Origin: Phyllobates terribilis
Taxonomy: Eukaryota
Length of the DNA: 64,000 nucleotides
Assembly: GCF_046119375.1 (NCBI RefSeq)
Contig: NW_027362763.1
Span: 329,468,001 to 329,532,000 of the forward strand
Reading direction: 5' to 3'
Positions within the stretch are counted from its first letter, which is position 1. Each line of letters opens with the position of its first letter. Made by a program: the position numbers and the translations under genes. The notes beneath the pieces were generated by a model. That model searched no databases. It worked only from the letters and a program-made list of their open reading frames with translations, and was not told the DNA's origin. Below, piece after piece: positions 36,570 to 48,600 of this stretch.

Positions 36570-36880
36570 TAGTGATGCACGAGCGTGCTTGTTTAACCCT
36601 TTCACCGAGCATGCTCTTGTGCTTACCGAGTAGCTTCGGCGTGCTCGTATATTATGTCTGAGTCCCTGCATCTGCATGATTTACGGCTGTAAGACAGCTT
36701 CAACACATGCAGGGATTGCTTGTTTGTTAGCGAATCTTCACATGTGTTGAGACTGTCTTACAGCCGTAAATCATGCGGACGCCGGGACTAGGACACAATA
36801 TACGAGCACGCCGAAGCAACTCGATAAGCACCCGAGCATGTTTGGTGAAAGGGTTAAACGAGCATGCTCGCGCATCACTA
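36570..36880. mobile_element. fold-back MITE
   Basis: TAGTGATGCACGAGC … GCTCGCGCATCACTA with long internal inverted arms. Confidence 0.75.
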
Positions 36881-38836
36881 CTCAGCAAAATTCACTGCTG
36901 CTTGTTTCCGGCACACAACTGTGCAGTCAAAATCGGCACTACACCTGTAGATTAATTTCCAGTGGGATATACAAAATAAAATGTATACTTTTTATTATAT
37001 GTGTATTTATTTCCATGGTGGTCATTCACTCCTTATATGTAGACTTATGACTTTTTTGTGATTACTCACTCAGATTAAGTAATGGTTATACTTATTTACT
37101 TAGTTGTGTATTTCTAATTCCCAGAGCAGTGTAATTTCCAAAATGGGGACACTTGAGGGTGGATTCTGCTCTTCTGGCACTTAGGTGCTCTATATATGGA
37201 GCTCGCAAACTATTCTACGATTATTTGTTCTCCAAGAATCAAATAGTGCTCCATCCCTTCCGAGTCTCGCCGTGTGGCTAAGCAGTATGTACTGTACAGC
37301 CACATATGGGGTATTGCCATGTTCAGCAGAAATTGTGTGACAAATTTTGGTGCCATTTTTACCCATTTCTCCGTATGACAATGTAAAATTTGGGGCTACA
37401 ACAAAATTTTTGTGGTAAAAATGTAATTATTTTTTCTTCACCGCTCAATGGTATAAAATTCTGTGACATACCACACCCATGGTATCAATATGATCACTTC
37501 ACCCCTAGATCGATTCATTGAGAGGTGTAGTTTGTAAAATGAGGTCACTTATGTGGGGGCTCTGCTATTCTGGTACCTCTGGGGTTCTGCCACTGTGACA
37601 TGGCACTCTCAAACCAGACCAGCCAAATCTGCACTACCATATCATTCTCCTTCTGAGCTTTGCACTGTGGTATGAGGTATTAGCGTACTCAGGATAGATT
37701 GCGTAACATATTTTGTGGTCCAAATTCTTCTATTATTCCTTTTGAAAATTGAAAACTTGGGGCCAAAGTAACATTTTAGTGGAAAAAATGGTAATTTTCC
37801 ATTGACCTAGCCCAATGTTATACAATTCTGTGAATCGCTTGGGGGTTAAAAATGCTGACTACACAGTTAGATTAATTCTTCAAGAGGTGTAGTTTCCAAA
37901 ATGGGGTCACTTGTCGAGGTTTCTGCTGTTCTGGCATGTGAGGAGCTCTTCAAATGTGACATGTTATTCACAATCTATTCCAGTTAAAATTTCACTCCAG
38001 AATTCAATTGGCGCTTCTTCCCTTCCAAGACCTGCCGTGGGGAAATTGCACAACAAATTGTATGTTCCATTTTTTCCTATTACTCCTGTGAAAATGAAAA
38101 ATTTGGGGCTGAAGCAACATTTTTGCGGGAAAAATTTATTTTTTCATTTTCACGGCTCAACATTATAAAATTCTGTGAAGTGCTCACTACATTTCTATAT
38201 GTTTCTCGAGAGGTATAGTGTTCAAAATGGTGTCACTTATGAGAGGTTTCCACTATTTAGGCACATCAGGGCCTCTGCAAACACGACATGACGTCCTCTA
38301 TCTATTCCAGCCAAAAAGTCAAATGGCGCTCCTTCCATTCCAATCCCTGCTGTGCGCCCAAACTGTAGTTTTCCACCACATTTCCTGTTACCCTTGTGAA
38401 AATTAAATATTTGGGGCAAAAGGAACACGTTTGTGGGAAAAATGTATTTTTTCCTTTTTACAGCTCAACATTCTGAAATTCTGTGAAGCAACTGTGGGTT
38501 CAATATGTTCTCCACACCTCTAGATAAATTCCTCGAGGGCTGCAGTTTCCAAAATAGGGTCACTTGTAGGGGGTTTTCTCTGTTTCGGCCCATCAGGGGC
38601 TCTGCAAATGCGACATGGTGTTCCCTATCTATTTGAAATTTTCAAAATGAAAATTGTGAATTTTTTGCCAAAATTCCAATATTTTCACAAATAAATGCAT
38701 GAAATTTAAACCTAAATTTACCACTACATACAGTAAAGTACAATGTGTCACGAAAAAACAATCTCAGAATCACTGTTATTCATTGAACCATTCCAGAGTT
38801 ATTACCATATAAAATGACACTGGTCAGAACTGCTCA

Positions 38837-39263
38837 TGACCGTGTACGGCCAACCCGGGTTCCATAGTTCCGTAAGACCCCTCCCCATCTTACCGACCTC
38901 AAGTACCTTAACAAATAAAAACACTGCACCTGTAATTTCTTTGGATAAATTTGGCCACAGCGGCCATTTTATTAACCAACAACATTAACATATAAACATT
39001 ATTATTCAAATAAATAAGAAGGGAGGGTTCTTGGAGTTAAAAATTAGATCTGGCATAACTAAACCGAAATCGAACCACCGTATTACCCTCAGCCGTCCAT
39101 CACCAGCTCAAGGGCACCAAACAGCTCCCAGGGTAAAACCCCATCCAGAGCCCCAAAAACCAAATGCCAGATCACCCCGGTTAATCAAGCCACTGCCTGT
39201 AAATTTCCAATAACTTTCCCACCGACACTTCTGTGCCAACTCCAAGAACCCCACCCCCCGCCA
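38837..39263 (-). repeat. Ngaro repeat B2
   Basis: 427-bp direct repeat of 39647-40073 (offset 810); 3 mismatches seen. Confidence 0.92.
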
Positions 39264-39432
39264 AGCCACTGCGACATACCTTCTTACACAACTTTACATA
39301 ACACTTTTAATATAACCCAGTATAATGCACAACATCAAATAACCCTTTAATTCTTTCACGATAAACAACCACCCTTTTACCATTAATCACAAAATATACC
39401 AATGGAAAACAAAAAAGAGGGTGGGTGGGTGG

Positions 39433-39646
39433 GAACTTCTCTCAATGACTTCTTCCCTGGACTGCCCGTTTTCCCGCACTTTTCCCTATTATACCTCTTC
39501 CCCTCTTTACCCCACCCCCATCCAAATGCCAGCCCCTCCAAGCCTATATCCAATCCCGACCATTGGGATTTAAAAATTGCACCCTCCTGGCCAATCCCGG
39601 TCATGTGGGGCTTCCTTCTAGGTTCCCATGCCTCCAGCCCCCTTCT
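39433..39646 (-). repeat. Ngaro repeat A2
   Basis: 214-bp direct repeat of 45430-45643 (offset 5997); abuts B1; 3 mismatches seen. Confidence 0.92.
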
Positions 39647-40073
39647 TGACCGTGTACGGCCAACCCGGGTTCCATAGTTCCGTAAGACCCCTCCCCATCT
39701 TACCGACCTCAAGTACCTTAACAAATAAAAACACTGTACCTGTAATTTCTTTGGATAAATTTGGCCACAGCGGCCATTTAATTAACCAACAACATTAACA
39801 TATAAACATTATTATTCAAATAAATAAGAAGGGAGGGTTCTTGGAGTTAAAAATTAGATCTGGCATAACTAAACCGAAATCGAACCACCGTATTACACTC
39901 AGCCGTCCATCACCAGCTCAAGGGCACCAAACAGCTCCCAGGGTAAAACCCCATCCAGAGCCCCAAAAACCAAATGCCAGATCACCCCGGTTAATCAAGC
40001 CACTGCCTGTAAATTTCCAATAACTTTCCCACCGACACTTCTGTGCCAACTCCAAGAACCCCACCCCCCGCCA
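39647..40073 (-). repeat. Ngaro repeat B1
   Basis: Copy of B2, immediately downstream of the SGNH ORF in element orientation. Confidence 0.92.
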
Positions 40074-40095
40074 CAAACGAACAGCCCTGACCACC

Positions 40096-40691
40096 TCAGG
40101 CTCGTGAGCGCCCCAACACTGCCAAAGCCCTCTCAATCCCCTCCTGTATAGATAATGCCCATAAATCAATCCCAATATCGTTCAGGTTCACCCCATCCTT
40201 TGCCCAAAAATCACCAACCCCTGCCTCAAGATCAAGATGCCGAACACTTACACCCCCATTTCTACCAACAAAAGCTGCTATGGCTCTATTCAACTTTACT
40301 CGTGCCCTATTAATGCCCTTCACTGATCTGGCCTCCCTCCAATTTTTTCTCGGCACAATGTCAGACCAAACCGTCAACACCCCAGGAAAAGATGTCCATA
40401 ACCTTAAAAAATCAATTCGAATATCCCTCATCAATTCCCTAACTGGCCGAACCCCCAAATCATTCCCCCCCATATGCACCACCAAAATGTCCGGCGCCCG
40501 GTCCAAACGAGCCGCCTTATGGAATTCAGGCAGCACCCTTCTCCATACCATCCCTCTAAAACCCAGCCACCGGACCACCACTTGCTCTCTGCTAAAACCC
40601 AGTTGCCTACCGTTTGGCCTCATATCCGCCCGCAGCGCCCCCCAATGAACGAAAGAGTGTCCAAGAATCCAGACTAATAACGGGACGTCAC
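40096..40691 (-). CDS. SGNH/GDSL hydrolase domain of the Ngaro element
   Basis: Open frame extends upstream of the first ATG (40623): VWILGHSFVHW (block I), VVHMGGNDLG (block III), DGVNL (block V, His replaced by Asn). Confidence 0.85.
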
Positions 40692-40760
40692 CTGCAATAA
40701 GACAACCAAAAAGGGGGGGTATTCACTTCTGGACAAAATAAAAACCACCATTCCGCATAC

Positions 40761-41810
40761 CTAATGCCGTACATAGGACAGATAACGATCTGAACTCCAC
40801 CTCCCGATGCGTTTTATCACATCCTTTCCTAAACCCAAACCGTCCGCTTCTGACGCCGCACCGATTCTGAAAGAATGCGACCCGTACACCTCAGGACTAA
40901 GGCCCAATTCCCGGATCCCTTTTTTAAATACTGCAATAAATTGAAAACGTGACAAAAACTCTCCGTTTTTATGACACAATAATGGGCCCTTACGTCCCGA
41001 CCAAACCTGCCAGTAAGCCATTAAACATCTCCTAGGACAAATAAAAGATCCATTAACCTCACCCAATACCACTAGCTTGCCTCTGCCCAATTGATCCATC
41101 TTCGCCCTCCTAATCCAAAATTCGATGCCCCCTTTCCGACCGCTCACATCCTCAGCAAACAAACCCCCAACCTTATTCCTACTTGGTGCCACCAACTCAC
41201 CTAATCTTAGTGCGCCAAAGAACGCCAATGAAAAAGCCAATCTAAACAGTGTGGCTTCAAAAACCGAACAACAGATCTTATCCAACACTAAACCCAACCG
41301 CTCTAAAATACTAAAAGTCACCGGTCTTCGTTTATCTAACACTTTACTTCCTCTCCTAAAGCCCCTAAGTGCTTGCTTCACTAAAAACGATTTTGTAACA
41401 TCTTTTAACCCCTGTAATCTAAAACCGAATGCCAATCCTGCAACAAATTTACCAACTTTTGACACAGACCATCCAATCTCTGCTGCCCTTCCCACAAGAA
41501 ACAACACCGCCATCTCTCTATCTCCTTCACCTTCCACCACACCCCACTCCAGAATCCAACTTTGCCATACTCGCCACGATGCCTCGTATGATGCCCAGGT
41601 CTGCCTCGTAATGGACTCCCTTATTAACCGTCCGGCTCCTCCATAACCAGTTGCCACAAATGCGAAGGGCATTCTTGACCCACGTCCCCTGCCTCTGGTG
41701 CTAGCGCCCGAAAACGGTCCCACTGAAAACAAGATAAGGCATCTGCTATAGAATTTTGTACACCTGGAACATGTACCGCTGTAATCCAAGCGTTCAAATT
41801 GAGACAACAA
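40761..41810 (-). CDS. tyrosine recombinase/integrase
   Basis: ALRLGELV, RRAKMDQ, SHSFRIGAA, GRWSSDRYLSYVR (R-H-R-Y tetrad); uninterrupted frame; first ATG at 41672. Confidence 0.93.
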   Translation of the reverse strand: MLSQFERLDYSGTCSRCTKFYSRCLILFSVGPFSGASTRGRGRGSRMPFAFVATGYGGAGRLIRESITRQTWASYEASWRVWQSWILEWGVVEGEGDREMAVLFLVGRAAEIGWSVSKVGKFVAGLAFGFRLQGLKDVTKSFLVKQALRGFRRGSKVLDKRRPVTFSILERLGLVLDKICCSVFEATLFRLAFSLAFFGALRLGELVAPSRNKVGGLFAEDVSGRKGGIEFWIRRAKMDQLGRGKLVVLGEVNGSFICPRRCLMAYWQVWSGRKGPLLCHKNGEFLSRFQFIAVFKKGIRELGLSPEVYGSHSFRIGAASEADGLGLGKDVIKRIGRWSSDRYLSYVRH

Positions 41811-43471
41811 AGAACTAGTTCCCTGAGCAGCCTAATAACCGGTGGGGACGAGGCCGACAAGCTGTTGATGACAGACACCACTCCCATGTTATCGCAATGA
41901 AACCGAATTCTCCTGTTGGCAAAACACTCCCCCCAAATAGTAACCGCAACAACAATAGGGAACAATTCCAAAAACGCCAGGTTCCTCGTAAGTCCCCTCT
42001 CCGTCCACCCAATCGGCCATGCCCCAACACTCCACCGCCCTTTCCAGTAGGCCCCGTATCCAGCACCTCCCGCAGCATCTGTAAAAATCTCACAATCAAA
42101 ACTGCTTACAAACTCCTGCTGGATTAATGACCTGCCATTATAGCTTTCCAAAAACAACTTCCAAACCCTCAGGTCCTCCTTGTGTTCCTTATTTAGGCGG
42201 ATAAAATGATGAGCCCCACGCACTCCTGCTGTGGCGCTTGACAACCTGCGACAAAATATTCTGCCCATTGGCATAATCCTGCATGCAAAATTTAAGCGCC
42301 CCAACAGCGATTGTAGCTCCCTCAGGGTCACCTTGCGCAACCTCCCGACTCTATCGACCTCCTGCTTGAGCAGACACAATTTATCTTCAGGTAACCGGCA
42401 CTCCATCCTTTCTGTATCAATAACAATGCCCAAAAAACTTAGGATTGTGCAAGGGCCTTCCGTCTTTTCTTTTGCCAATGGTACGCCAAAATGCTCCGCT
42501 ACCCACACCATAGTACCTAACAAATTCCTACACAATAACGATTGCGGAGGGCCTATAAACAAAAAATCATCCAAATAATGAATGACTGAATTAACTGATG
42601 CCAGGTCCTTCACCACCCATTCCAAAAAGGTACTAAACGTTTCAAACAAAGAACACGAAATTGCACAACCCATTGGCAAACACCTATCCATGTAATATGC
42701 CCCATTCCAAAAACAACCTAACAACTGGATGCTATCCGGGTGAACTGGCAGCAACCGAAAAGCCGACTCGATATCCGTCTTGGCTAACAACGATCCTGAC
42801 CCATATCGCCGTACCCATCGCACCGCCGCATCAAATGATGTATATTCAACTGAACATAATTCCTGTGCAATGCCATCATTCACCGAGAGCCCCTTCGGGT
42901 ACGACAAATGCTGAATCAAACGAAACTTATTCAGCTCTTTTTTGGGCACAACCCCCAGTGGCGAGATAATCACCCTGCTGCTAGGTAATACCCGAAGCGG
43001 TCCCGCCATCCTTCCCAATTCCACCTCCTTAGCCAACTTCACGCTAACCACATCCGGATGAAGGGAAGCCGACGTCAAATTTTTTAGTGAAAAGGGGACC
43101 TCGTGCTCAGGAGGAGGGATTCTAAAACCTTCCAAAAACCCATCCGAAATGACCTTAGCCTTCGACTGATCCGGATACCTACTTAGAAAGGGGGCCATCG
43201 CGTGCACCCTCACCGGAGTCAACCCTTTGACCGGTACCCACTGTAGGCTTTCCCTTACCCTTCTTAAAGCATTTTGATACTCCGTGTGAGCTTCCATTAC
43301 AATGGGAGCACACGTGTTTGAATTTACAGGAGGTCCCGTACTTGCATTGGCCGTCATTAAATTGCCAGCAAGTTCCCACTTCCTTCTTAGTGCTTTGTGC
43401 CCCTTGGTTACCTCCCCCTTGTCCTGCTGATTGGTTACCACTACTGCTGCTCCCGTGAAAGGACTGCCCAT
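41624..43471 (-). CDS. reverse transcriptase plus RNase H
   Basis: KTDIESAFR, LPMG, YLDDFL; RNase H motifs FTDA, LELF, HCDN, IADALS; 615 aa uninterrupted. Confidence 0.95.
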   Translation of the reverse strand: MGSPFTGAAVVVTNQQDKGEVTKGHKALRRKWELAGNLMTANASTGPPVNSNTCAPIVMEAHTEYQNALRRVRESLQWVPVKGLTPVRVHAMAPFLSRYPDQSKAKVISDGFLEGFRIPPPEHEVPFSLKNLTSASLHPDVVSVKLAKEVELGRMAGPLRVLPSSRVIISPLGVVPKKELNKFRLIQHLSYPKGLSVNDGIAQELCSVEYTSFDAAVRWVRRYGSGSLLAKTDIESAFRLLPVHPDSIQLLGCFWNGAYYMDRCLPMGCAISCSLFETFSTFLEWVVKDLASVNSVIHYLDDFLFIGPPQSLLCRNLLGTMVWVAEHFGVPLAKEKTEGPCTILSFLGIVIDTERMECRLPEDKLCLLKQEVDRVGRLRKVTLRELQSLLGRLNFACRIMPMGRIFCRRLSSATAGVRGAHHFIRLNKEHKEDLRVWKLFLESYNGRSLIQQEFVSSFDCEIFTDAAGGAGYGAYWKGRWSVGAWPIGWTERGLTRNLAFLELFPIVVAVTIWGECFANRRIRFHCDNMGVVSVINSLSASSPPVIRLLRELVLCCLNLNAWITAVHVPGVQNSIADALSCFQWDRFRALAPEAGDVGQECPSHLWQLVMEEPDG

Positions 43472-44078
43472 ACCTCACTGGGGCCATAACCTTCAGCCAC
43501 AAACCAATGTCCTTTTGATCCCATCTGATCTCAGGGCGGACTGCCTTCCTCTGCCGAAATTGCTCGTCATATCGTAACCATGCCTGACCCCCGTAAGTCC
43601 TATGAGCCTCCCCAATAGCATCAAGGTAGCAAAACAAACCCGAACAATTATCAGGAGCTTTTTCTCCAGTAACGCTAGCCATTATTGCAAAAGCTTGCAA
43701 CCAATTGACAAACGTCTGTGGAATCAACCTCCACCTACGCTTCTCTTCTTCCTCTTTTTTACTGTCTTCCTTTTTTCCCTTATCCAGGTTAAACTTTTCC
43801 AACGGAAGAAGGGAAAAAATTTCGACATACTCGTCCCGCCAAATTTTTTCTTTAACCTCTTTTTTTAAATGCGCCCCCAATGGCCCCTCAAAGCACACGT
43901 ATACCTCCCCTTTCGCCCTATCATCCAGTTTTATACTATCCTCATTTTCCTTTTCTGTCTGCACACACACCGACACCCCAGAAGGTGTCCCAGCTGTACA
44001 CCCCGCCGACCTGGCCGACTCGCTCCCCACCTGCAACAACGCCGGTTGACTAGGTAGCCAAGCCCCCGCCGGTGACAA
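43179..44078 (-). CDS. gag-like ORF1, C-terminal half (CCCH and CCHC zinc fingers)
   Basis: CWQFNDGQCKYGTSCKFKH (C-x7-C-x5-C-x3-H) followed by CSHCNGSSHGVSKC (C-x2-C-x4-H-x4-C); no ATG at the frame start. Confidence 0.85.
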   Translation of the reverse strand: MSPAGAWLPSQPALLQVGSESARSAGCTAGTPSGVSVCVQTEKENEDSIKLDDRAKGEVYVCFEGPLGAHLKKEVKEKIWRDEYVEIFSLLPLEKFNLDKGKKEDSKKEEEEKRRWRLIPQTFVNWLQAFAIMASVTGEKAPDNCSGLFCYLDAIGEAHRTYGGQAWLRYDEQFRQRKAVRPEIRWDQKDIGLWLKVMAPVRYGQSFHGSSSSGNQSAGQGGGNQGAQSTKKEVGTCWQFNDGQCKYGTSCKFKHVCSHCNGSSHGVSKCFKKGKGKPTVGTGQRVDSGEGARDGPLSK

Positions 44079-45351
44079 CCCCCTTTGAATGGCCCCCCCC
44101 GCCGTCTATTCTCGCCAAAATGCGCGACATGCTAACCAACAAATCCCTAAACCCGCTTACATCTGACCCACTACCTCCCCTACCATTTTCCCTGCTGGGC
44201 CCAGACACCTGCCTATCACCTAACCCATCCGCTACAGACCCCGCGGGCGACAAACCATACATAGACGCATACTCACGAAGCTGCGCAGGTGCTGTGTCCC
44301 CGCCAGCCGTACTCCCCGAGTCCTGATGAGTCCTTGGTTCGTCTTGTTCTTCTCCATAATCCAGTCCGACCGACCCCTGCTGCTCAAGGCCCGCGCCCCT
44401 GGCCTCCTCGTCACCAGGGGGGACCCGAGCCCGTGCCGACCTCCCCGCCGTTCGTCCTCCAGTCCTCACCGCCGACCGTGCACCTCCGCGATTTTTAGAC
44501 CCGGACTCACCAGCCCGATCCGTGTTGGTCCGTGGATAACTGCCAGGCAACTCCGTGCTGCTGCCCGCCGCTCCATCCCTCTGCCTGGAGAAACTTGAGC
44601 CAGGCAGCAGGTCCTGGAATTGTTGCTGCCTGCCCGTGTAGCTCCGCTGCTGTCTGCGCCCTCTGGTCTGTCTGGCAGGCACCCCGACAGGAACGTCGCC
44701 AGGTGTGCCTGCCGCGCTGGTGTTCCCTCCGTTCCCCGCTGCAGGATTGCCGCCCTTTTTTCTTTTGAATAACCGGCGTCTTGAATCGCCGCTGGATCTT
44801 GGAGCGGGGGGCGTGTCCCTGCGCCCGCCGCTCATTGGCTGTGCGTCCCTTTCGTCTGTCTCCGGGGCCGGAAGTGACGTAGTCCCCATTTCCAGTGAGG
44901 CCCCGCCCCCCGGATGACGCGTCTGCGGCCCGGGCCTTGCTTCCGGCGCGGCCTGGGCTCTAGTACTGCGGCGCGCCGACGGGGGAGGCCGCACCACGAC
45001 GGACCGGGGAACTTCAGTCGCGGACCGCGACCCGATGCAGGGGGAGCCCGCAGACCGGCTGGGCGGATTCCTGCCGCGGCGGGCACGCCGGCAGGGGATT
45101 CCGCCGGCATGCTCCCCGGACACAGGGTCCCCTGAGGGGCTCCGCAGTCTGCGCCTGCTGCCCGTACCAACCATCTCCAGGGAAAGCCTCTCGGGGGGCC
45201 GCGTCCTCCTGGTACTTCTTCCCAAACCCGACGGTGATTCTTCCTCTCCGGCATTCCCCAGAAGTCCGGCCAGCTGGGCCTCAAGCCACCCTCCTTGCCT
45301 GGATCTGGCAGTCTCCCTCAGCCTGGCGATAAGGGACTCCACGGACTCCAT
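44050..45351 (-). CDS. gag-like ORF1, N-terminal half (basic, likely disordered)
   Basis: Long open frame directly after repeat A1; ATG at 45351 (MESVESLIARLRE); joins 43179-44078 if one base is removed from the C8 run at 44093-44100. Confidence 0.75.
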   Translation of the reverse strand: MESVESLIARLRETARSRQGGWLEAQLAGLLGNAGEEESPSGLGRSTRRTRPPERLSLEMVGTGSRRRLRSPSGDPVSGEHAGGIPCRRARRGRNPPSRSAGSPCIGSRSATEVPRSVVVRPPPSARRSTRAQAAPEARPGPQTRHPGGGASLEMGTTSLPAPETDERDAQPMSGGRRDTPPAPRSSGDSRRRLFKRKKGGNPAAGNGGNTSAAGTPGDVPVGVPARQTRGRRQQRSYTGRQQQFQDLLPGSSFSRQRDGAAGSSTELPGSYPRTNTDRAGESGSKNRGGARSAVRTGGRTAGRSARARVPPGDEEARGAGLEQQGSVGLDYGEEQDEPRTHQDSGSTAGGDTAPAQLREYASMYGLSPAGSVADGLGDRQVSGPSRENGRGGSGSDVSGFRDLLVSMSRILARIDGGGGHSKGVVTGGGLAT

Positions 45352-45429
45352 AATAGCGAGAAGAGTGTCCAAGCAATTAGAAAGGTAAAAATATATATAT
45401 ATATATTTTTTTTTTTGATCAGTGCTCCA

Positions 45430-45643
45430 GAACTTCTCTCAATGACTTCTTCCCTGGACTGCCCGTTTTCCCGCACTTTTCCCTATTATACCTCTTCCCC
45501 CCTTTACCCCACCCCCATCCAAATGCCAACCCCTCCAAGCCTATACCCAATCCCGACCATTGGGATTTAAAAATTGCACCCTCCTGGCCAATCCCGGTCA
45601 TGTGGGGCTTCCTTCTAGGTTCCCATGCCTCCAGCCCCCTTCT
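45430..45643 (-). repeat. Ngaro repeat A1 (5' end, promoter-like)
   Basis: Copy of A2; minus strand carries GATTGGCC and TTTTAAAT motifs. Confidence 0.9.
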
Positions 45644-48600
45644 GGAAGGTGAAAACAGGCTTCGGGTGAAGGAGTTAAACCAATAAAAAGTCCCTGTTGT
45701 GGTTACATAATATTCGCTTCATGCGTCATTACTCCACGAAAATAAAAACCACTGTTACTCACTTTTGGGTAAATTACCAGCTTTGGAAAGCATTGGTACA
45801 ATGACTAAGGATGTGAATATGTTTTAAGCGCATTGGATTTTTCACTTATATATGCTGCAGTTTAGATTTTAACTGCTGTTGAAATAAAATACCATAGTTA
45901 GGAAATTGTATCTGTGCTGACTGTATTTCTTGTTTTAAGCATTGGTAAATAGATGATTAAAAAATGGCAAATTGCCAGACCACACTGTATGAAGCCTTTG
46001 TGATTTTAACTTTGTGATGCCTACAGCAGTTCTAGGCTGTAATACAGATACTATACAGTGTACACATACATAGATTCTCAAGTATTATCAAATTAAGTGC
46101 ATATCGTTAGGATAGGCCACCAATATTGGACCAGGGGAGACCAAGAACTGGCACTCCTAGTGATCAGTAAGTGACAATTCCCCGCACAACCACTTCAAAA
46201 TGTATAATCTGGAAAACAAAGAAAGACAACTGGGGCTCACTGGATGCATGACCCATTCAATATTCTGATCAACAGTGATGCCAGCAGTCTGACCCCTACA
46301 AGTCATATATTAAGGTGGTTTTCCAGGCACAATAAGAAAAAAAATCTGGCTTTCCTTGTAGATTCACAAATCTCCTTGTTACCTTAATTTACCTATTTTA
46401 GCGCCCCTTCAGCTCACTACAGCTACATTTGTGGACTATTGTTTTTTACATTCTGATCTTCCTGCCAGCTCTCCCTATGCACCTCTAACTACATTTACCA
46501 AGAAGCAGTACTCTCTGGCTTCTCTATCAGAGCTTCATCTGTCCCACAGCTTACTCACTCCCATTCTTAGCGCCCACCCACTCAACTTTTACAGCACCAT
46601 CCTGAGACTCCTACACAGTCTCAAGATGGAAAAATCGCTGCTCAGTTTCTACCACTTAATACTTCCCAAACTTCACCTAATTCGTGCTATCCTAAGACTT
46701 CTGCAGTCAAAAATGTTACAGGAGCAGACAATGGCACCACACAAGCTCCATGTACTGTAGGGGAGCAATGAGTCATAGAATGGATTTATTTATTATATTG
46801 TAATCTAGCAATCTAGAAGCCAAGCACCTTATCCTCTGAACAATATCACTAGTTGATATGATTACTATTCTCTGTCGGCTCTGCTCTCCCTTCCTGTACA
46901 CATCCCAGTCACTCACTGACTACAATCACAGGTCACGACGTCCCCAAGACATCACGGTTCAGACAGAGCACACTGCTCTGAGAGCTATAGGCTGAGTCCC
47001 GCCTCCTGCATTGACTGACAATCTACATTCTGTTCAAAGCACAGACAGAAAATCTCTACTTTGTGCTTTGTATGGACTGTAGCAGCAAGTTAACTAGAAG
47101 TCACATGACCATAAGTGGCAGCTCAGAACAAAGCATCATTTTAACAGCAACAAAATCATGAAATTTCATAATATCACATGTGTTTTATAATGTGTTAATA
47201 ATCTGTGTGTCTGGAAAATCCATTTAATAGTTAAAGTGTAGGACTATGTAAAATACACTTTTTTCATATAATTTAATAAGACTCAAAGTTTACTATATCC
47301 TTCTAACCATATAATTAAACTGTTGAATACACCAGCACAGGCTTATCTTTTTAATATGAGTGAAGATGCTGCTCTAAAAGTGAACAGTTGAGTTATTTAA
47401 AGATGTGATAGCTACTGGTGTAGCAGAGCTGAATTTCATTCATATATCAAGAAACTAATGTAGTATGTATGCCATGTAATAGATTTAGCTACAGCTCTTT
47501 GTAAAATCATAGATAACCAAACATTATTTTGTAATATGGTGTGCAAAATGACCAATTCAACTCCATCTAATTTTTCATCTAAACAATTAGCCTTGTTATA
47601 TTTCTATTATTTCAATTGTCCTGGAAGAGGTAGTTATTTATAGTGCATTGAGAACACTTGAAATATACAGCCAGGGATTCTGGATCATTTCCTGGGAGAA
47701 GAGCGCTAGCGGACATGACATTTAGCTCTAGTACGATTCTGAAATCATATGTGTTTATGGTATGATATTTACTGCAAAGTAGAAAATCAATAGCAGCAAA
47801 TGTAAAACATGTCAGCCCCTAAGTCATCTGCATAAGAATCCATAGCAATATCAGATGAAAATAACCTTAATGTGAGAAATTAAAAGGGTCATCCACAGAA
47901 TCACATTATTTTTAATGAAGCACAGTAAATGCATACTTATTGTTAATATACAAACTAAGGCCAACATATAGTTTCTTTGTAACTTTCTGTCTTTTTTCAT
48001 CTCTATCTGCCTTTCTGTGCATCCAGCTTTACATAGCCGAATGGGCGGTCATATTCTTATTTACTAAATCTACATTTCCCAGCAGCACTTGCTTCCCCGT
48101 AGTGCTGCAGATCCCTCACTTTTTCCCCTGTGCTCTTACCTCTCTGAGGTATCATCAAACTAATGTAAGTGTAGAATTCACATGCTTCTGTTTACTCTCT
48201 GCTCCTTTGCAGTACCCTGCCTAACCAATTTTATCTTAGGCAGGGTACTGTATAGTTGCAGTGTGGTTTTAAATCATTAGTTGGTTTTAGCAGAGCAGGT
48301 TTTAGTAAAGCTCCACTCTCCTGCACTCCTCCATAATGGCAATGAAGAGCTGTGTTTGTTGGGTGCTGCAGACAGATCAATAATGTGAAACTATAAATGC
48401 TTATGCTCTATTGATACATATGACATAAAATAATCTTGTACATTATCCATCAATAAAGATAAATTTGCATTTTCACATTACTGAACTCTCAGGAGCTGAC
48501 ATCAAAACACAGCTTAACTAATCTCAGCCCCTGTGCACTGAGCCCCATATTGCAGTATATGTCTCCTCTCAACCCAATATATACAGCCCATCCAGCTGTA

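Follow-up and report, generated by a model that had tools for sequence, protein, structure and literature searches.

A recent Ngaro retrotransposon copy of Phyllobates terribilis and the likely splicing of its gag to two alternative last exons

Coding modules and classification of the element

The window analysed here is a stretch of 64,000 nucleotides of Phyllobates terribilis (assembly GCF_046119375.1, contig NW_027362763.1, positions 329,468,001 to 329,532,000), and it contains a Ngaro retrotransposon of 6,807 bp on the minus strand, at 38,837-45,643. These limits, set by the repeats of the element and by sister copies in the genome, are exactly those given in a first-pass annotation made from the letters alone. 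Its parts follow one another, from 45,643 to 38,837, in the order A1-ORFs-B1-A2-spacer-B2 (ORF, open reading frame), with the split direct repeats A1 (45,430-45,643) and A2 (39,433-39,646) of 214 bp, B1 (39,647-40,073) and B2 (38,837-39,263) of 427 bp, and a spacer of 169 bp between A2 and B2 (39,264-39,432), all on the minus strand. The A pair and the B pair each exhibit three mismatches, as had been noticed together with the order gag-RT/RH-YR-SGNH of the frames (RT, reverse transcriptase; RH, RNase H; YR, tyrosine recombinase), and both pairs are significant (E = 0 and 8e-105). A chance origin of the element is ruled out by these E values and by the 19 further genomic copies at 97-99% identity.

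The four frames lie on the same strand. The first one, named gag from its position and its zinc finger, has a basic, low-complexity N-terminal coding part of 1,075 nt (44,277-45,351) that runs from the ATG to a splice donor in phase 1; the N-termini of fusion models in other frogs are homologous to it, and we infer that it is a shared first exon. In the window copy, gag is spread over two frames of 462 and 308 aa stop to stop. As read from its ATG it is broken and reaches 433 aa (44,050-45,351), the family frame being lost at about residue 419 (near 44,094), and the C-terminal part with a CCCH zinc finger (43,179-44,105; Pfam zf-CCCH, E 4e-4) is severed from its ATG. A set of 77 loci of the family was analysed, with all three splice sites mapped in 60 of them and the gag start too in 54; the two parts of gag are continuous in 16 of these 54 copies, and sister copies with an open gag encode 681-728 aa, 723 being the commonest length. 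Upstream of the gag ATG, the leader that follows A1 holds an A/TA microsatellite (45,379-45,421) whose length varies among copies.

The pol frame (41,624-43,474), of 616 aa stop to stop, contains the RT (Pfam RVT_1, E 1.1e-7, and motifs) and the RNase H, with no methyltransferase, and ends 39 residues past the start of the RNase H ADALS motif. A Pfam search showed no Dam methylase match in the window proteins, the control being weak in that Dam matched only one of four DIRS1-type pols (E 0.019). Met93 of pol, at 43,198, sits just upstream of the gag stop, and 32 of the 120 pol homologues listed (hand count; the best 120 of 2,040) begin at the equivalent Met, a start that ORF callers favour anyway. 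None of these 120 listed homologues is a fusion of the gag N-terminus to pol. A -1 frameshift from gag to pol was dropped, pol being in the +1 frame.

The YR frame (40,761-41,831) has 356 aa stop to stop, or 319 aa from its candidate splice acceptor, and exhibits the R-K-HxxR-W-Y motifs. The window YR protein alone had no Pfam match; a profile built from 13 homologues found Cre at E 2.6e-6. Both pol and YR are open, in agreement with the first-pass annotation. The last frame is an SGNH esterase of 208 aa stop to stop, without a Met ahead of the catalytic Ser, of which 197 aa form a predicted exon (40,096-40,691). It matched Pfam Lipase_GDSL_2 with E 3.3e-5 (below cut-off), and its predicted model (pLDDT 82.5) matched GDSL lipases (Foldseek E 2e-9) and also the esterase of the long interspersed nuclear element (LINE) ZfL2-1 (Foldseek E 2e-7). 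A phmmer search of SGNH against PDB gave chance matches only. Other SGNH proteins outscore the ZfL2-1 esterase, and a common origin with ZfL2-1 is not supported.

The RT was placed in a tree of 38 rows, from which one control without a usable frame and one of 27 picked homologues had been dropped; the DIRS1-type controls were 12 LAP2alpha loci of the same genome, labelled by structure. The window RT falls among homologues from frogs and lizards, groups with the frog ones (96/92) and is split from the RTs of 11 LAP2alpha loci at 100/100; its identity is 56-71% to frog RTs and 28-31% to the control RTs. Since the tree contains no named Ngaro reference, membership in Ngaro rests on structure, namely the split direct repeats, the absence of room for a methyltransferase and the SGNH. 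Using the definitions of Ngaro, DIRS and PAT structure given in PMC9210276, PMC3783388, PMC8547959 and PMC6681497, we found split direct repeats, gag-like, RT/RH and YR frames in this order and overlapping, SGNH after YR, and insertion without target duplication. Neither inverted terminal repeats nor an internal complementary region (ICR) occurred in the window element, and the same test found them in most LAP2alpha loci. The element is almost certainly a Ngaro, and the proposal of a young Ngaro distinct from DIRS1 was borne out.

A PAT-like or DIRS1-like element is highly improbable. PAT elements also have split direct repeats (PMC6681497), and the tree leaves the Ngaro name without a reference; against this, the stretch after RNase H is too short for a methyltransferase, SGNH is present, inverted terminal repeats are lacking and the RT is only about 30% identical to those of DIRS1-type elements of the same genome. 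The PAT combination of split direct repeats and methyltransferase is half present, the repeats being found and the methyltransferase not; PAT elements carry a methylase (PMC7192593). The DIRS1-like elements of this genome, and those described in the same paper, differ from the window element by their inverted terminal repeats and ICR, a LAP2alpha gag and a longer pol with Dam-like room. A large DIRS1-type family (9,720 LAP2alpha candidates; L146-L157) with near-identical inverted repeats coexists in the genome.

The nearest homologues of the element proteins are all frog proteins. Xenopus DIRS-53_XT and DIRS-54_XT (PMC9210276) have the same order A1-gag-RT/RH-YR-SGNH-B1-A2-B2, overlapping frames, no methyltransferase and recent activity, whereas the window element has a 169-bp spacer between A2 and B2 and repeats of 214/427 bp instead of 236/152 bp. 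It is an ordinary new Ngaro family member, whose novelty lies solely in the spliced scheme described below.

Probable splice sites joining gag to the esterase and recombinase frames

In the family of this recent and non-autonomous copy, one gag donor is likely spliced to either of two acceptors, so that besides the full Gag a Gag-N::esterase would be made and, with less certainty, a Gag-N::recombinase. The four coding modules reported by the first-pass annotation are all present, and a better reading takes YR and SGNH, beside gag and pol, as alternative last exons that are each joined to the gag N-terminus.

The donor GTGAGT (44,271-44,276, minus strand) is kept in 57 of 60 copies, and the exon base preceding it varies (C, G and T in 46, 11 and 3 of the 60). 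Among the 23 copies below 92% identity, this base is 43% conserved versus 96-100% for the six bases after it. Gag exon 1 is in phase 1 in 27 of the 28 copies where it is open, and the donor is in phase with both acceptors, all three sites being phase 1. The SGNH acceptor (40,692-40,712, minus strand) consists of a pyrimidine tract and TTGCAG in non-coding DNA and is kept in 67 of 69 copies. The candidate YR acceptor (41,723-41,740, minus strand) lies within the 'FQ' codons of RNase H, with CAG in 65 of 67 copies, and frog gene models join here. With an ad hoc splice score, devised after the candidates were known, the two acceptors rank first and second of 412 AGs.

The gag-SGNH join is present in the contigs of five of eight public runs from two studies, these runs being contigs of guessed or unknown kind, none recorded as RNA. 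Contigs of runs X1 and X3 join 40,677 to 44,274 with 11 letters between, and in runs X5, X7 and X8 of the second study this join is found as a loose end, among the 24 loose ends shown out of 203. The joined letters have 108 matches, in a sister subfamily that resembles the window element at about 72% identity. In this subfamily, a pyrimidine tract and TAG stand directly before the joined letters at 10 of 10 inspected loci, and the donor was seen in three of five longer loci, as GTGAGT in two and GTGAGA in one. The join falls exactly on GT..AG in phase 1 and fuses gag-N to SGNH, with an intron of 3,558 nt at one locus (L141); in window coordinates this intron is 40,692-44,276. A search of the assembly for an intron-less gag-SGNH copy, with one mismatch allowed and thereby covering the sister variant, gave no match. 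Splicing of Gag-N to SGNH very probably occurs in the family.

A textbook reading would hold that four separate overlapping ORFs are expressed, YR and SGNH by frameshifting, read-through or starts of their own, and that the likeness to splice sites is fortuitous. PMC9210276 and PMC3783388 do describe YR frames that overlap or are frameshifted, and in some copies YR and SGNH form one frame split by a single stop. The YR-SGNH frame relation, however, varies between copies and subfamilies, so read-through from YR to SGNH cannot be general; the SGNH acceptor is nearly invariant in non-coding DNA and an exact GT-AG join was found in two studies. The textbook reading is quite improbable, even with the YR Met54 mentioned below in its favour.

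Gene models of other frogs exhibit the same fusions. BLAST showed a gag-N-like start in 15 of 25 long SGNH homologues, many of which join after the same 'TAP.Q[LP]' motif, and in 7 of 25 long YR homologues. The YR acceptor was predicted, at YR residue 37, before the homologue search showed models joining there: 13 of 25 YR homologues align from residues 33-40, two of the 13 being pol-containing models. In Bufo bufo (P0001/P0155) and Eleutherodactylus coqui (P0013/P0147), one N-terminus heads both an SGNH and a YR model, with 98-99% identity over 281-332 aa. Gag-N::YR splicing probably occurs in the family as well.

Several observations weigh against the two-acceptor scheme. The gag-YR join was found in none of the eight runs (15 of 16 joints shown in one search, all 14 in the other), and no join was seen in them for the window copy's own subfamily. 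The contig joins, coming from runs of guessed or unknown kind, leave expression, strand and level unsupported. The YR acceptor and the donor are in coding sequence, so that their conservation is confounded; the donor is outside the top 10 of 371 GTs on the ad hoc score, a second phase-1 GTGAGT is found at 44,510, and an in-frame Met at YR residue 54 might be an independent start. The frog fusions are gene models, possibly partly ab initio; some of them use a second donor, about 28 codons farther along, or enter YR at a later position, and some fuse pol to YR or SGNH.

Part of these points would suit a scheme where only the esterase is spliced to gag-N, YR being made from its own ATG or by a frameshift from pol, and the CAG in the 'FQ' codons being kept for protein reasons. 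The missing YR join fits it, FQ is conserved at the protein level in pol homologues, and no intron-less gag-YR copy was found in the assembly. Against it, the phase of the YR acceptor agrees with the gag donor, gene models of several frog families have their junction at YR residue 37 or beside it, and first exons are common to the SGNH and YR models of B. bufo and E. coqui, which leaves esterase-only splicing rather unlikely. The splicing could also be a host defence, or be cryptic, inactivating the full-length RNA and giving fusion products useless to the element: the only subfamily in which the join turned up is a diverged one, and its five inspected copies are mostly broken in SGNH. This is improbable, given that the in-phase sites are kept across subfamilies 72-99% alike and across frog families and that SGNH has no other start.

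Proposed expression scheme and its context

Under the two-acceptor scheme, the unspliced RNA would give full Gag and Pol, Pol being perhaps started at the ATG just ahead of the gag stop, and the same RNA would be the template for reverse transcription. The common basic Gag N-terminus would bring the YR and the esterase into the particle or onto the RNA, where the esterase, by analogy with the ORF1p esterase of ZfL2-1, might act on membranes. The A and B pairs would rebuild the ends of the element, and the YR would act on the B|A junction (TCA^AG), recombining it with a target of similar sequence, T[A/C][A/T/C]^[T/A]G, without target duplication. The window copy would be movable only with Gag supplied in trans. 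More broadly, we lean towards the view that hydrolase-bearing Ngaro elements are expressed like simple retroviruses, Gag-N acting as a packaging tag for the integrating enzyme and a membrane-active esterase, that this scheme is conserved across frogs, and that the esterase exon has also been kept as a host gene.

The retroviral env is likewise made from a spliced message that removes pol. The spliced env/ORF3 messages from LTR (long terminal repeat) retrotransposons (PMC5408684) are comparable in that a downstream ORF without a start of its own is reached by splicing out pol; the window first exon differs in carrying 358 Gag codons, and one of its targets is the integrating enzyme itself. The ORF1p esterase of ZfL2-1 (PDB 4c1b; PMC3905857) has a short N-terminal helical part and a basic linker ahead of its SGNH fold, as would the Gag-N::esterase if the fusion is made; it is encoded directly by one ORF1, whereas the window element needs a splice.

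No account of splicing in Ngaro or DIRS elements was found in the literature searched, a provisional result as the founding reviews of the group were not covered. In the main text of PMC9210276, SGNH is the fourth ORF, one 'with no proven function', and splicing goes unmentioned, whereas in the window element YR and SGNH resemble alternative terminal exons. YR retrotransposons raise the questions by what route the buried YR and the start-less hydrolase frames reach translation and which function the hydrolase has; defined splice joins make them testable and define real proteins for study. The same joins account for frog gene models now wrongly labelled 'IF-2-like', 'collagen-like' or 'SRRM1-like'. 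Five such Ngaro gag-N::SGNH models (P0001, P0002, P0006, P0012 and P0013) are annotated IF-2-like, SRRM1-like, collagen-like, serine-rich repeat-like or ARMCX2-like.

A lone SGNH exon with 81% identity to P0024, a Ranitomeya model, was observed at L169:325-918 (G000:C7:244970321-244970920). The 39 kb examined there contained neither element DNA nor pol or YR, and no first exon was found for it. The gag-N::SGNH models P0007, P0019, P0020 and P0023-P0025, from five frog genera, have a similar N-terminus, and the lone exon together with these related models is, judged by sequence, a candidate domesticated gene.

Age, integration and decay of the family

A whole-element search of the genome (10.6 Gb) gave 3,822 first-look candidates, of which 20 were scored, 19 being other copies at 97-99% identity; the genomic copies are not all highly diverged. 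A 19-base motif of the B end has 570 exact matches in the genome, and a control motif has none. The six mismatches in the 641 repeat bases of the window copy are private, none recurring in the other 18 paired copies. Many variants are common to both repeats of one copy among the paired copies, as expected if the repeat pairs are rebuilt at each cycle. With a substitution rate of 3.1e-9 borrowed from Xenopus (PMC9210276), the insertion is roughly 1.5 million years old.

Among the 54 copies, the frame is open for gag in 16, pol in 20, YR in 25, SGNH in 27 and all four in 8, and the window copy is outside these 8. Block V of its SGNH reads DGVNL, with Asn for the catalytic His; of the 26 copies whose block V can be read, 24 retain this His. 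Its frameshifted gag and this replacement contradict the description of the copy as complete or near-intact and a good consensus template; the first-pass annotation called only pol and YR uninterrupted, made no statement on gag being open and flagged neither defect. The copy is young but non-autonomous.

The window copy is inserted, without target duplication, in a host dispersed repeat (38,500-38,836, resuming at 45,644-45,680, no strand assigned). Both flanks were readable in 15 of 24 paralogues of this repeat, and they showed an insertion without duplication or loss at the junction, with 14 bases missing 7 bp away. These clean empty sites, together with a satellite-borne insertion, support integration without target-site duplication. 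The target consensus is 5'-T[A/C][A/T/C]^[T/A]G, with T at -3 in 50 of 63, T at +1 in 57 of 69 and G at +2 in 67 of 69 distinct flanks. The element's own B|A junction, TCA^AG, resembles it, and this likeness fits the trinucleotide integration model cited in PMC7192593. We infer that the B1|A2 junction at 39,647|39,646 is the recombination site. The B|A junction is at the stem end in an imperfect inverted repeat (39,575-39,690) whose arms persist in diverged copies. Considered as a folded site of the integron type, it forms four short stems in 23 of 23 junction variants, the 5' arm having served as search motif; the folding energy was no better than that of shuffles (z -1.15 and -0.69).

Both the target bias and the abundance of single-B copies are relevant to Ngaro integration and decay. 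Beyond the copies already analysed, the 3' ends of 65 further loci (L054-L118), picked in genome order from the B-end list, were counted by hand: 27 have two units and 30 have one B with host DNA after it; of the other loci, 6 consist of a solo A-spacer-B and 2 of a B only. Single-B ends occur in 11 of 24 copies at least 95% like the window copy versus 19 of 33 of the rest (hand count). The copies of a single satellite insertion (L007-L012, L016) differ in having one, two or three B units, so at least some single- and multi-B forms come from recombination after insertion. Recombination of B1 with B2 and of A1 with A2 would likely give the single-B, multi-B and solo A-spacer-B forms.

Three-B copies, with an extra A-spacer-B, were observed at L004, L007 and L114. 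Single insertions were multiplied with tandem arrays in three settings: a 34-bp satellite (L007-L012, L016), B-end matches spaced by about 52-113 kb on G000:C2:47.8-48.6 Mb, and many sister-subfamily matches on the small contigs C205, C417, C843 and C894. The host dispersed repeat, which extends over 37,100-38,836 and 45,644-45,680 and which we take to be probably a DNA transposon, has internal units of about 326 bp, ends at TTAA and gave 7,039 first-look candidates. Beside it, at 36,570-36,880, inverted repeat arms of 140 bp, 88% complementary and 31 bp apart, likely form a miniature inverted-repeat transposable element (MITE).

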